IMG/VR virus record: IMGVR_UViG_3300037459_000226
Coordinates: 11,542-75,541 of that record
DNA: 64,000 bases
From: a virus
Strand: one strand, 5' to 3'
The notes under the pieces are model-generated. The model was not told the origin of the DNA. It worked only from the letters and a program-made list of their open reading frames with translations, and ran no database searches. Both the position numbers and the translations under genes were made by a program. Shown in pieces: positions 9,957 through 14,042 of the stretch (positions are counted from its first letter, which is position 1; every line of letters begins with the position of its first letter).

Positions 9957-10122
9957 CGCGACTGACATCCACGCGGCGGAGCGGCCAGGAACGCGACCGA
10001 GATTGCCATTATGGAGATCGCCCTCCCAGGTCAAGCCTACCGTCTCCGCCGTTTCGATTTACCATTTTATGCTTTTGGGCGAAAGGCATACTTTCTCGTT
10101 TCCCCCTGTTGGAGAGAACAAA

Positions 10123-10410
10123 ATGCTCACAATCTGGAAGTTTCCGTTGGTGCTGACTGATCACCAGGACGTGGAGATGCCGATCAGTGCTCGATTCCTG
10201 CACGTCGCCCTGCAAGAAGCCACGCTCTGTCTGTGGGCGGAGGTTGACCCAAATGCCACGAAAGAACTTCGCACGATCCGAGTCATCGGCACGGGCCATC
10301 CTCTTGAGGACACACCGCGGAAGTTCATCGGCACTGTGGTGATGGGGCCGTTCATGTGGCACGTGTACGACGTCACGTCAGAATCACCCGCGGCATCGGA
10401 ACCCGGCTGA
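10123..10410 (+). CDS. Conserved-type phage hypothetical protein (TIWKFPL...WAEVDP...GTGH...IGTV...WHVY)
   Basis: Motif pattern common in phages; GGAGAG SD. Confidence 0.7.
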   Translation: MLTIWKFPLVLTDHQDVEMPISARFLHVALQEATLCLWAEVDPNATKELRTIRVIGTGHPLEDTPRKFIGTVVMGPFMWHVYDVTSESPAASEPG

Positions 10411-10447
10411 GAGCCGCTACTGGATGCTTTCACTTCAAACAGGGAGA

Positions 10448-10687
10448 ATGATCATGGCGCGAAAAGAGTACGAACTGACTGACGAGCAGTTGGAATCCAT
10501 ACTGAACCTGAACGCCTCTAAGCCGGTGCCGTATATGGTGTTCGGAGGTCGCGAGCCTCGGTCGCCCCAGGAAAATGCGAACGCCAGACGGGCTGCGCTC
10601 GGAACTGAAATGGGCTTCGACTTTCTTACCGTCCAGCCAGTGCAAGGCAAAGGCCAGAAGTTCTTCACGGCAGAGGAGTCCGGCTGA
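10448..10687 (+). CDS. Hypothetical phage protein
   Basis: ASKPVPYMVFGG..PRSPQENAN pattern; GGGAG SD. Confidence 0.65.
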   Translation: MIMARKEYELTDEQLESILNLNASKPVPYMVFGGREPRSPQENANARRAALGTEMGFDFLTVQPVQGKGQKFFTAEESG

Positions 10688-10782
10688 GAGCCGCCAGCCC
10701 GCGCGGTCCGTCAACCTGTCCCCAACCGGCGGGCGGACCGTGCCGCTGGATGCTTTTACAATTTACTAATCGGAGGTGCGAG

Positions 10783-11121
10783 ATGATTCCACGAGTCGCG
10801 GCAATCGACACTCAGTTGGCGGATGTCGACGGCAGGCTGTCGTCGTTGGAGGATCTACAGCGATCACTCACGAGTGAGCGACGCAAGCTGCTTTCGCAGC
10901 AGTTCGTCGAGGTGACCAACGTCACTCTGGCCGACGTCGAGCTGTCCACAGGCGAAGACCGGCCATACTTCACCACGTTCGGAGAATTCGGAAAGTGGCT
11001 TAAGAAAAACAACATCCAAAGGCGGTACGCCGAGTGGAACACCCTGCTCTATTACACGTCGGATGCGATGGCGGGACGGATGGGTGAATCGCTTGCGGAG
11101 CTGGAAGACGTCCCCGCTTAA
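10783..11121 (+). CDS. Hypothetical protein, paralog of 11540-11875
   Basis: Shares VT..VE, WN..Y.T.D..AGRM and LE.VP motifs; GGAGG SD. Confidence 0.7.
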   Translation: MIPRVAAIDTQLADVDGRLSSLEDLQRSLTSERRKLLSQQFVEVTNVTLADVELSTGEDRPYFTTFGEFGKWLKKNNIQRRYAEWNTLLYYTSDAMAGRMGESLAELEDVPA

Positions 11122-11171
11122 ACTTCAGCGATGCCGCTGGATGCTTTTACTCGAACGATGGGAGAAAGACG

Positions 11172-11543
11172 ATGATGACCGCAGAAGAGAAGCAGTGTGC
11201 GTTCAAGGCAGCGTTCGGGAGGCTCGACGAGGAACATCTGGGCAACCTGCTGTTTCACGCCGAGCAGAAGACGCCGGTCTGCTGTGGAAAAGATGCGTGG
11301 CTCTACGCTGACGGTTCAGGCGGGATGTGACCGGCCGCGATGTCGTGCACCCGTGAGGTGTACATGGATCGCACAGTCGGCGGTCTTCGCACGTGCCCTG
11401 AGTGGGAAAGTGCATTTTCCACGCTGATGGGTGCAGCCGGCCACAGCACAATCGCCTACTACGTCGCGTTGAAACAGTCCAACGCCGATGAGGTTCGGCA
11501 AGCCGTGCTGTCAGTCTGCGATCCAGGTGGAGAAACCAAATGA
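11172..11543 (+). CDS. Candidate UGA-readthrough (selenocysteine?) protein 1
   Basis: 52 codons, in-frame TGA at 11328-11330 (context YADGSGGM-*-PAAM), then 70 more in-frame codons; GGGAG SD at the 5' start; hairpin at 11337-11372. Confidence 0.5.
11337..11372 (+). promoter_or_regulatory. SECIS-like stem-loop 1
   Basis: GCGAT-GTC-GTGCACC[CGTGA]GGTGTAC-ATGG-ATCGC; the loop starts 21 nt after the UGA and contains GU at positions 2-3. Confidence 0.45.
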
Positions 11544-11875
11544 GAACACGGCAGTCAATCCAGATTGAGATCACCCACCTGAACATGGAAATCTCACCGC
11601 TCATTCGCAAGAGGAGCGTGCTGAAGCGAGAGTTGAATGAGGTCGAGTCTCGCAACTGGATCGCGGCGAACGGCGTGACGATTGATCAGGTGGAACCCGA
11701 ACCCCCGTTTGGAACATGCGGAACCATCTTCGATGCACCGGCGAGGACGGGAAAGCGGTTCTTGACATGGAACGGTCGTGTGTACTTCACGGCGGACATT
11801 GCTGCCGGCAGGATGCCGAGAGAAAACGGTCTGCTGGAGCACGTCCCACAAACAACGGGAGCACGAGATGCCTAG
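11540..11875 (+). CDS. Hypothetical protein, paralog of 10783-11121
   Basis: ATGA coupling; shared motifs with its paralog. Confidence 0.7.
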   Translation: MRTRQSIQIEITHLNMEISPLIRKRSVLKRELNEVESRNWIAANGVTIDQVEPEPPFGTCGTIFDAPARTGKRFLTWNGRVYFTADIAAGRMPRENGLLEHVPQTTGARDA

Positions 11876-12158
11876 CCCGATTTGCATACCGTGCCGATGT
11901 GAGATGCGGTGCGAGAAGAACGACCAGTTTGTCAACGACGTGAAGTCCGATGTATTCCCGTCAACGTTCTGGTCGTCTGATCTGTGGCGTTGCCCGGTCT
12001 GCGGCAACATTATCGCGACTGGTTTCGGGAGGGGTCAGATTGCGAAACGCGTCACGCCAGGCGAGTCGCTCACGTTCGCCCACGACCCATCCCAACTTAC
12101 CACGTTCGCCGATCAGTTTGAGGAACCAAGCGATGCCAAAGAAGAAAAAACCGAATAA
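11868..12158 (+). CDS. Zn-ribbon hypothetical protein
   Basis: CIPC...DLWRCPVCG. Confidence 0.65.
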   Translation: MPSPICIPCRCEMRCEKNDQFVNDVKSDVFPSTFWSSDLWRCPVCGNIIATGFGRGQIAKRVTPGESLTFAHDPSQLTTFADQFEEPSDAKEEKTE

Positions 12159-12843
12159 GGTCGTAACCGAACAGCAGCGGGAACAACTCATCGCTGATCG
12201 GGTCGCCTGCATCCGCGCGCTGCTCGGGACCGGGGGGACCGTCGCCCGCATCTGCCGCTGTCTCGGCACGTCGCCGGCAGCGTATCACCGGTTCGTGACA
12301 CAGCACGCGCCGGACTGGGAGACGTGGAAGGGTGAAGCGACGGCGACGATGCTAAGGCCCTCTCAATGGCGTGATCTGGAAGCCGGTGACGACCCTCTCA
12401 ATCCACCCTCGACTGAGCCGACGACGCTGGCCGAGACCACGATTCCCTCGGTCAACCGGCAACGCGAAGAGGAGTTTGAAGTAGTCGGTTGCCTGGATTG
12501 TCACAACTTTATCGGATACGCCGATGTGACAGGCGGGGAACGAGTTCCGACGTTCTACTGTTCCTCGTGCGGGGCCAAGCGGATCGAAAGCGGGGATGCC
12601 GTGTTAGCGCCGGACCACTCGCCGATGCCGCCAGCCGATGGGGGCGAGCCGGTTGTCTACATCGATACCATCATTCCCGGAGTCGCTGTAGGGGAGCCGT
12701 ACGTGGACGGCACGGTTCAGAATCCCCTCCACACCTTCGAAGACGCAAAGAAGCTCGCGGAGGATGTCGCAAAGCAACAGGCTGGCACATTCCCGCCCGT
12801 CGATCCGCCCGAAACAGACGACCGTTCCTCAATCCCATACTGA
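12133..12843 (+). CDS. Hypothetical protein with HTH-like N-terminus and Zn-ribbon
   Basis: GGTVARICRCLGTSPAAYHR (HTH-like), CLDC...CSSC. Confidence 0.6.
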   Translation: MPKKKKPNKVVTEQQREQLIADRVACIRALLGTGGTVARICRCLGTSPAAYHRFVTQHAPDWETWKGEATATMLRPSQWRDLEAGDDPLNPPSTEPTTLAETTIPSVNRQREEEFEVVGCLDCHNFIGYADVTGGERVPTFYCSSCGAKRIESGDAVLAPDHSPMPPADGGEPVVYIDTIIPGVAVGEPYVDGTVQNPLHTFEDAKKLAEDVAKQQAGTFPPVDPPETDDRSSIPY

Positions 12844-12857
12844 CGGAGACTGACCGA

Positions 12858-13277
12858 ATGAATAATCGGCAACGATACGCACTCAGGAAACCGTGTTCGC
12901 GAGCACCTGACGTACTACGCGACCGCCGTTATTTTGCATGGCGGGGAAGCTGGTCAACGATTCTGAGTGTTAATAAATGACTCAGCTTCTGTAGTGGTAT
13001 GCCCGTGTGGCACGCCTCAGTCGCTCTCCAATCCCGAAATGGTCCAAGACCAGTCGAAGCACTCAAACGCCAGCAAATTCACAAGGGGATCAAAATAGCC
13101 AGCGCCTTGCTGGTAGGTGTCGGCGGAGATCGAATTGTTTTCACCACGGATCCACCTAGAGACGCAATCCACGTTCAAAAGCCGCTGACAGTGGAAGAAA
13201 TTGAGGGTTTACCCGATGGATGGATGCAGATCGCAGCCATAGACGAACGTGGGACGTACAGAATTTTAAGGGTGTGA
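12858..13277 (+). CDS. Candidate UGA-readthrough (selenocysteine?) protein 2
   Basis: 40 codons, in-frame TGA at 12978-12980 (context ILSVNK-*-LSFCSGMPVWHASV), then 98 more in-frame codons; GGAG SD only at the 5' start; hairpin at 12996-13016. Confidence 0.5.
12988..13020 (+). promoter_or_regulatory. SECIS-like stem-loop 2
   Basis: GGTATGCC[CGTGT]GGCACGCC, extendable by CTG/CAG; the loop starts 23 nt after the UGA and has the same CGTG core as hairpin 1. Confidence 0.4.
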
Positions 13278-13795
13278 TGAGTCGGGAGCCTGAAGCCTCC
13301 GAAGCGGGACAAACTATGACCGATACGATCCACAAACCCTGCGACAACTGCCCGTGGAGAGTCTGTAACCACGGCAAGCGGACCAAATGGGGATTCTACA
13401 CCAAGTCCAACCTCAAGCGTCTCTGGGGACAAATCCGGAGAGCTGCTCGCGGAGGGATTGCCCAAAGCTGCCACCCCACCGACCCCAGTCATCCAGACCA
13501 CAGGGAAGCCGGAGCTAAAACGGGCAGCACACCCGTAGAATGTGCCGGGAGCGTCATCCTCGTCTACAGGGAACTCCAAAAGCTCAAAGACGCCGCCCCT
13601 GGCGACATCGTCGATGGAACCCACATAGACGCCTACCTCGCCCAGAACAAACAGCACGGACTCACCAAAAAGGGACTCCTGCACTGGCTCATAGGTCGCC
13701 ACCAAATGGGCGGAACATTCTTCGGGACAGGCCCCAAGCTCCCAAACGTGGACATCGACGAACCCGGCGTCGGAAGAATATGTGACGCACCGTGA
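13277..13795 (+). CDS. Cys/His-containing hypothetical protein (PC..CPWR, SCH, CAG; DUF6283-like)
   Basis: KPCDNCPWR...SCHPT...ECAGS motifs; alternative start at 13316. Confidence 0.6.
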   Translation: MSREPEASEAGQTMTDTIHKPCDNCPWRVCNHGKRTKWGFYTKSNLKRLWGQIRRAARGGIAQSCHPTDPSHPDHREAGAKTGSTPVECAGSVILVYRELQKLKDAAPGDIVDGTHIDAYLAQNKQHGLTKKGLLHWLIGRHQMGGTFFGTGPKLPNVDIDEPGVGRICDAP

Positions 13796-13796
13796 C

Positions 13797-14042
13797 TCAG
13801 ACCGCGTCGGGCGCCCGCTTGCGACGTGAGTCCGCCACTGCGGGCGCTCGGGCGCGCAGGCTGTCGGCAACCGCAGGCGCTCGTGCCCGAAGAGAGTCCG
13901 CCACTGCCGGGGCGCGAAGAGGACGGTAGGGCACGGGAGGGGCCTCAGTCGCCTCGGTCTGGAGGCCGAACGTCAGGAACTCCGGAATCGCCCCAGGAGT
14001 CCCGATTCCCAAGGTGATGACTTGGTTGATGTCGGCCATCAC
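13797..14042 (-). CDS. Small protein with RARAPAVADS tandem repeats
   Basis: Coupled to the large fibre-like gene; about three 33-bp repeat units at 13828-13920. Confidence 0.65.
   Translation of the reverse strand: MMADINQVITLGIGTPGAIPEFLTFGLQTEATEAPPVPYRPLRAPAVADSLRARAPAVADSLRARAPAVADSRRKRAPDAV

Follow-up and report, generated by a model that had tools for sequence, protein, structure and literature searches.

The gene at positions 12858-13277 of the window, by which we mean the whole 64,000-nucleotide stretch of viral DNA analyzed here, has 139 codons and carries an in-frame UGA at codon 41. Comparison with its relatives indicates that this UGA-interrupted gene is a single read-through gene and not a product of decay. 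We consider it probable that the UGA is decoded as selenocysteine (Sec) via the SelB protein of the host, and that the gene represents a new family of phage selenoproteins. The source virus record spans 75.5 kb, has direct terminal repeats and a G+C content of 58.6%, and the following features define the gene.

12845-12848, plus strand: Shine-Dalgarno-like GGAG, 9 nt 5' of the ATG at 12858, read directly from the sequence
12858-12977, plus strand: codons 1-40, the N-terminal part, comprising 40 sense codons, MNNRQRYALRKPCSRAPDVLRDRRYFAWRGSWSTILSVNK
12978-12980, plus strand: in-frame UGA, codon 41, the proposed selenocysteine codon, TGA in 84 of 84 distinct homologous loci
12981-12998, plus strand: six-codon linker LSFCSG from the UGA to the hairpin core, translated solely on UGA read-through
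12996-13016, plus strand: SECIS-like hairpin with 5' arm GGTATGCC (12996-13003), loop CGUGU (13004-13008) and 3' arm GGCACGCC (13009-13016)
12999-13274, plus strand: codons 48-139, the C-terminal part, a 92-aa ORF that gene callers report alone and for which homologues were found
13275-13277, plus strand: terminal stop TGA, which closes the frame 98 codons after codon 41 (LSFCSG-MPVWHASV...)

The first-pass annotation of this DNA had described a GGAG Shine-Dalgarno (SD) motif, the ATG at 12858, a TGA at codon 41 with a 98-codon continuation, a hairpin with its loop 23 nt past the UGA, an ATG at 12999 within the 5' arm of that hairpin and a Cys at +4, and all of these are present in the sequence. 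In the window, the hairpin overlaps the codons G-M-P-V-W-H-A. The equivalent start was checked in 14 loci and is mostly preceded by GGAG, GAGG or AGGA, with four loci showing no SD-like motif. The N-terminal part contains a motif of the form M..RQ..AL..P and strands at residues 26-29 and 32-40, and both its sequence and its start position are kept across loci.

With the downstream 92-aa ORF as a query, the proteins recovered were all of ~90 aa and all started with MPVWH. The DNA upstream of six of these relatives contained the same in-frame stop, in the context ..WSTILTINK-stop-LSFCxG-MPVWH.., preceded by a conserved ~40-codon ORF with its own SD. In total, 84 distinct homologous loci were taken from viral and metagenomic contigs using DNA search patterns that were made stepwise less biased: the earliest specified TGA and ATG, the following ones an ATG at +4 with the stop unspecified, later ones named neither the stop nor codon +7, and the last relied on a motif of the C-terminal protein part only. 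With every pattern, essentially all true relatives had TGA in the same column. Across the 84 loci, which span 25-78% protein identity, neither TAA nor TAG was found in this column, while the same genes end with TGA in 57 cases, TAG in 16 and TAA in 6. The codons at -1 and +1 are highly variable, leaving the TGA as a fixed point between them, and the base 3' of the UGA is C in 40 loci (including those of the subfamily to which the window belongs), A in 25, G in 17 and T in 2.

The TGA is followed by a hairpin at a distance that is fixed at six codons in every locus. Numbering the U of the UGA as nucleotide 1, the family stem pairs nt 19/20-26 with nt 32-38/39 and encloses a loop N27-G28-U29-N30-U31, in which G28 and U29 (13005-13006 in the window) are invariant in all aligned sequences. 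Positions N27 and N30 (13004 and 13007 in the window) are the wobble positions of a Pro (CCN) and a Val (GUN) codon, and they form a Watson-Crick pair in 71 of 76 distinct sequences, compared to 29.7 expected from base frequencies (C:G 39, G:C 21, A:U 9, U:A 2). Pairs 22:36, 23:35 and 24:34 co-vary too, and in the lower stem synonymous codon choices track those of the pairing partner (Arg CGA with Leu UUG, CGG with CUG, Gln CAG with CUG, Lys AAG with CUU, and Glu GAG with CUC). The covariation score of the whole structure is 0.267, compared to 0.110 +/- 0.010 for shuffled alignments, with 0 of 500 shuffles reaching the observed value and a score of at most 0.119 when the register was slid. Synonymous resampling that kept the peptide gave a z that averaged -1.05 and was below 0 in 83% of loci, compared to +0.1 for a control region of the same genes. 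As judged by these comparisons, the predicted RNA structure is shown to be under selection at synonymous sites. The window's own hairpin has an A:C mismatch at 22:36 and a z of +0.16, and is no stabler than synonymous recodings of its peptide, so that the structural evidence belongs to the family and not to the window copy.

The GUN Val codon that supplies the loop GU is found in all 54 split proteins taken from the databases, as compared at the level of protein sequence, versus 17 of 45 unsplit ones, indicating that the GU is tied to the TGA and not to the protein. Given that the N27:N30 Watson-Crick pair encloses only two nucleotides, extrusion of the GU is implied, and pairs of this type may be common to SelB-binding loops in general, although little noticed (cf. 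G22:C25 of the fdhF GGUC). By itself, the hairpin is not long enough to be specific, and a search of window positions 10000-14000 against Rfam returned no match, even at E <= 10.

Bacterial SECIS elements have been described as having an unpaired adjacent G and U in the loop together with a bulged U (PMC8704476), with their identity residing in a GGUC hairpin (PMC4489274), and the E. coli element is characterized by G23, U24, U17 and an 11-nt spacer (PMC8659212). In general, a SECIS consists of a 6-8 bp stem with a conserved G ~20 nt past the UGA, with differences in spacing tolerated by a flexible SelB hinge (PMC4605307), and elements outside E. coli vary (PMC9312934, PMC4605307). The phage family has in common with E. 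coli fdhF, fdnG and fdoG a UGA followed by an intragenic hairpin of 6-8 bp whose loop holds an unpaired G-U. When compared to the E. coli loops extracted from NC_000913 (GCA-GGUCU-GC for fdhF, GCA-AGUCU-UGC for fdnG and fdoG), the family loop is GGUCU, identical to that of fdhF, in 21 loci, and AGUCU, identical to that of fdnG and fdoG, in 2. In contrast with the E. coli SECIS, which has a bulged U in the upper 5' arm, the window hairpin has no bulged U, and the GU of the family lies at nt 28-29 compared to 23-24 in fdhF, 5 nt farther from the UGA, with a spacer of 15-16 nt versus 11-nt. The family also differs from fdhF, fdnG and fdoG in that it is phage-encoded, has no Pfam or PHROG match, and has a 5-nt loop with a co-varying N:N' pair. 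Thus, the predicted hairpin fits the general description of a SECIS, but not the E. coli specifics.

Searching 1.84 billion representative proteins with a profile returned 447 relatives. About a third of the best 150 of these 447 are unsplit, and the rest start just past the UGA column. To align the two forms, BLASTP queries carried X at the TGA, so that the alignment was unbiased there. Cys was found opposite the TGA in the comparisons of L081 and L106 with P0058 (43-46% identity), L083 with P0101 and P0140 (41%), L006 with P0027 (48%), L065 with P0031 (45%) and L013 with P0039 (34%), and these unsplit homologues fall in four subfamilies other than the window's. The nearest unsplit relative of the window protein, P0032, has Trp opposite the TGA, and the comparison of L076 with P0038 gave Ser. 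Across the ~47 unsplit proteins, Cys is the commonest residue of the column, with 7 cases by fixed offset and up to 13 by hmmalign, the latter count being biased upward because the profile carried Cys in that column; Trp accounts for 1-3, and Gly, Ser, Phe, Asp and Tyr are found as well. A tree built from the C-terminal part only requires 14 changes between TGA and a sense codon, no fewer than 5 of which are imposed by branches with good support, and it places Cys forms within TGA clades. Repeated exchange of UGA and Cys is the basis of SECIS-independent selenoprotein discovery (PMC9312934). The family thus resembles bacterial selenoproteins in having Cys homologues and repeated UGA/Cys switching, although the residue of the unsplit forms is not universally Cys. 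The UxxxC motif noted at first was found to be confined to the window's own subfamily, and is not a feature of the family. Alignment of homologues across the UGA, the comparison by which the first-pass annotation had proposed to judge its own reading, therefore shows a UGA that is kept throughout and unsplit forms that are enriched in Cys; taken together with a hairpin that co-varies at synonymous sites, this favors programmed recoding, possibly in a selenoprotein, over decay, as had been suggested.

We infer that the inserted residue is Sec, that the factor responsible is SelB, and that the hosts possess the Sec machinery. In the mechanism that we propose, ribosomes starting at the ATG at 12858 would read the codon-41 UGA as an amino acid, likeliest selenocysteine, with the mRNA hairpin at 12996-13016 recruiting host SelB together with Sec-tRNA(Sec) through a loop that would present the unpaired G and U 28-29 nt past the U of the UGA. 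The read-through product would have residue 41 after Lys40 and continue with LSFCSGMPVWHASVALQSR, while termination at the UGA would instead yield the 40-residue N-terminal peptide. In this phage, the ATG at 12999 could also give rise to a 92-residue product, which would not be a feature of the family. No tRNA-Sec was found in the source record (G000) or in 50 related records, where the sub-threshold matches are ordinary tRNAs; the Sec machinery would therefore be that of the host.

A possible, if rather unlikely, alternative is that the UGA is read through independently of SelB, with the hairpin slowing or remodeling the ribosome or binding some other host or phage factor, and a near-cognate tRNA (Trp, Cys or Arg) inserted at a set low frequency to give a fixed ratio of the 40-aa to the full-length product, in the manner of Q-beta A1. 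Such a mechanism would explain the invariant UGA, as the leakiest stop, the translation across it, and the hairpin at a fixed distance equally well. In E. coli, UGA followed by C is a weak termination context, and C is the base found in the window's subfamily; across the family, however, this base varies. The Trp of the window's nearest unsplit homologue is also in line with this reading, but the unsplit column as a whole favors Cys over Trp. The lack of a bulged U and the spacing unlike that of E. coli are also in keeping with a hairpin that does not serve SelB, but its loop keeps the G-U that SelB requires, flanked by a co-varying pair, and is identical to E. coli SECIS loops in 23 loci, whereas an invariant GU would be needless for a purely mechanical roadblock. 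To our knowledge, no hairpin-stimulated readthrough signal has been established in bacteria. In the RNA phage Q-beta, the UGA of the coat gene is read by tRNA-Trp at a few per cent to produce A1, and this requires no specific downstream hairpin with a conserved GU. The phage gene described here is like A1 in that a phage UGA is read through and a short product extended to a longer functional one, but differs from it in that the part past the UGA forms a single domain with the upstream part in the AlphaFold model, and in that Cys, not Trp, replaces the UGA in relatives.

Both selenocysteine insertion and readthrough without SelB entail that ribosomes continue past the UGA, and several lines of evidence bear on this. 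The changes flanking the TGA, including those within the six codons of the linker, are almost only third-position or otherwise synonymous (e.g., Arg CGG/CGT/CGA/CGC, Leu CTG/CTC, Asn AAC/AAT, and Ser AGC to TCG). The linker is of constant length in all loci and retains a family-wide motif (hydrophobic residue, Asn, x, Gly) that the unsplit homologues have as well. Moreover, in 36 of the 84 loci none of the codons from +1 to +7 after the TGA is ATG, GTG or TTG, and the 90-100 downstream residues of these loci therefore require read-through from the upstream start. Judging from these substitution patterns, translation across the UGA is shown to be under selection at the protein level. All TGA forms are present in protein databases as ~90-aa fragments, and for 23 database proteins the only codon from which they could be called is the Val codon of PVW. 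An AlphaFold2 model built with 57 family members and with Cys at the UGA position predicts that the 139 residues form one compact domain (pLDDT 94.1, pTM 0.88; a run with 13 sequences gave a pLDDT of 80.9), in which residues 1-40 have a pLDDT of 91-98 and the strand at 32-40 pairs with a strand at 49-59 across the UGA position.

It is improbable, in light of these results, that the gene is instead truly split, with termination at the UGA and re-initiation at a nearby AUG (12999 in the window) that the hairpin would otherwise hide, and with the 40-aa and 92-aa chains assembling non-covalently. The packing of the two parts against each other in the AlphaFold model would be consistent with such an assembly, and the window has an ATG at +7 within the hairpin arm. 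Many members have an ATG at +1, +4 or +7, and those with an ATG at +1 often have Leu or Val, not Met, at +7. However, part of the Met excess is a product of the early search patterns, which required ATG, and, as the 36 loci above demonstrate, a start is not near the stop in every member; nor would re-initiation account for the database proteins that can be called from the PVW Val codon only. Selection at the amino-acid level acts on the linker codons even in loci that lack a start ahead of them, and a codon that served simply as a stop would be expected to vary among TGA, TAG and TAA in the way that the terminal stops do. The internal ATG buried in the hairpin, which had been highlighted at first, is likewise not a family feature.

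Decay, sequencing error or a phage-wide code in which TGA is a sense codon (code 4 or 25) can be set aside with near certainty: a lone in-frame TGA in one genome would resemble a nonsense mutation, and TGA-recoded phages are known, with alternative coding in phages discussed in PMC9523058, but the same TGA is present in 84 independent assemblies, and TGA is an ordinary stop in this phage, with a genome of 58.6% G+C, ending 14 of the 21 window ORFs of 300 aa or more. Since TGA closes long ORFs and the gene itself, and no tRNA is encoded within the 64-kb window, a reassigned code is excluded. An explanation based on an antisense ORF was also rejected, given that the protein of 139 residues encoded in the sense frame has 447 relatives in the databases and a fold predicted with a pLDDT of 94.

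The first-pass annotation had also drawn support from a second interrupted gene with a similar hairpin nearby in the window.

11172-11543: candidate 1 ORF, with an in-frame TGA at 11328-11330 and a hairpin GUGCACC-CGUGA-GGUGUAC at 11345-11363, in which the GU lies at nt 26-27

Candidate 1 is an orphan, with self matches only among 5.8 billion proteins and no match among the collected loci. Hairpins of this type follow, by chance, 0.3-0.6% of any in-frame stop in the collected phage DNA. The argument from two independent split genes thus did not hold, because candidate 1 is an orphan and because such a hairpin arises after this proportion of in-frame stops, and candidate 1 neither supports nor weakens the selenoprotein case. 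The loop core CCCGTGWGG said to be shared by the two genes is indeed present at 11350 and 13002; however, the window contains 4 matches compared to 1.64 expected, and 8 of 100 shuffles reach 4, so that the shared core by itself lacks significance. The recurrence of TGA, spacing and hairpin in 84 of 84 loci, by contrast, greatly exceeds chance. A scan of phage DNA for UGA plus hairpin, which had been suggested as a follow-up, gave no enrichment beyond the family: outside it, a stop followed by the hairpin was found for 8 of 3013 TGA, 7 of 1147 TAG and 3 of 683 TAA codons. In the absence of any TGA excess, a general recoding system acting on multiple genes of these phages was rejected.

Selenoproteins have been described in cellular organisms and in a small number of eukaryotic viruses. 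Our searches of the literature found no bacteriophage selenoprotein, and in a marine metagenome survey the selenoprotein families examined were reported to contain few viral sequences or none (PMC9402790). Among the viral selenoproteins that have been discussed (PMC1802603, PMC6769590), the glutathione peroxidase homologues of molluscum contagiosum and fowlpox virus are like the family described here in being encoded by a virus and in that the phage gene, too, would depend on the Sec machinery of the host. They differ from it in being captured host glutathione peroxidase genes with a eukaryotic-type SECIS, whereas the present family is specific to phages and would have a bacterial-type SECIS inside the coding region. 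We tentatively suggest that this is the first bacteriophage selenoprotein family, carried as an early gene by hundreds of uncultured phages, whose full-length product would require host SelB, tRNA-Sec and selenium, and through which the phage would read the Sec competence or selenium status of its host. If this is true, the full-length protein would be made in Sec-competent cells and the 40-residue peptide only elsewhere, and the TGA-or-Cys state of a phage could mark or predict the Sec trait of its host. If Sec is used, these phages would be exploiting a recoding machinery that a minority of bacteria own, gene callers would systematically split the TGA forms in two, and the family would provide ~80 natural SECIS variants with clear covariation, including the N27:N30 loop pair around an extruded GU. 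If Sec is not used, the gene would exemplify a type of hairpin-dependent readthrough for which no bacterial case has been established, and it would be no less interesting.

With regard to distribution, the family is absent, at both the DNA and the protein level, from 50,697 GenBank phage records. No member was found in two scans of one genome each from 185,579 bacterial and archaeal species; the patterns of both scans required Met at +7, and prophage copies belonging to other subfamilies may therefore be missed. A single contig flagged as a provirus showed no host marker, and one Cys form derives from a Mycobacteriales MAG, which is a host hint only.

The immediate surroundings of the gene are a run of small early ORFs without family matches (window 10400-13800). 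The upstream gene at 11950-12843 (297 aa) has only weak helix-turn-helix and zinc-ribbon matches, and the next gene downstream, at 13316-13795 (159 aa, with a weak match to phrog_5443), has a 34%-identical relative at 5773-6159 of L081. No other gene neighbor is common to the loci, and since no neighbor is conserved across them, the context gives no function.

The gene is a member of a large family of small alpha+beta phage proteins that has lacked annotation. Neither the window protein nor 57 family members matched any entry in Pfam or PHROGs, a sequence-profile search of the PDB gave no match, and Foldseek searches against the PDB and BFVD returned nothing at E <= 0.001. For both models, the highest-ranking structural matches are nearly all members of the HIT superfamily, with aprataxin (4ndf_A) at a Z of 5.7-5.9 over ~100 aligned residues and HINT2, Fhit and DcpS at a Z of 4-5, values that, at Z < 8, are within the range of chance arrangements. 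The family has no His-x-His-x-His motif, and only one conserved His lies in the matching strand. The predicted fold resembles the HIT superfamily weakly, if consistently.

Four proteins of 254-271 aa (P0050, P0074, P0088 and P0090) have two stretches that match the family profile, which suggests a tandem duplication of the domain in some phages. A branch that includes L006:2980-3429, L024, L033, L038, L040, L054, L065 and others has a Cys-rich C-terminal tail of the form ..PSxxPCxxP..W[IL]PxDCGxCxxCxAR, which looks like a small zinc-binding module. Members of this same branch usually have Leu, not His, after PVW, and the hairpin changes to match.
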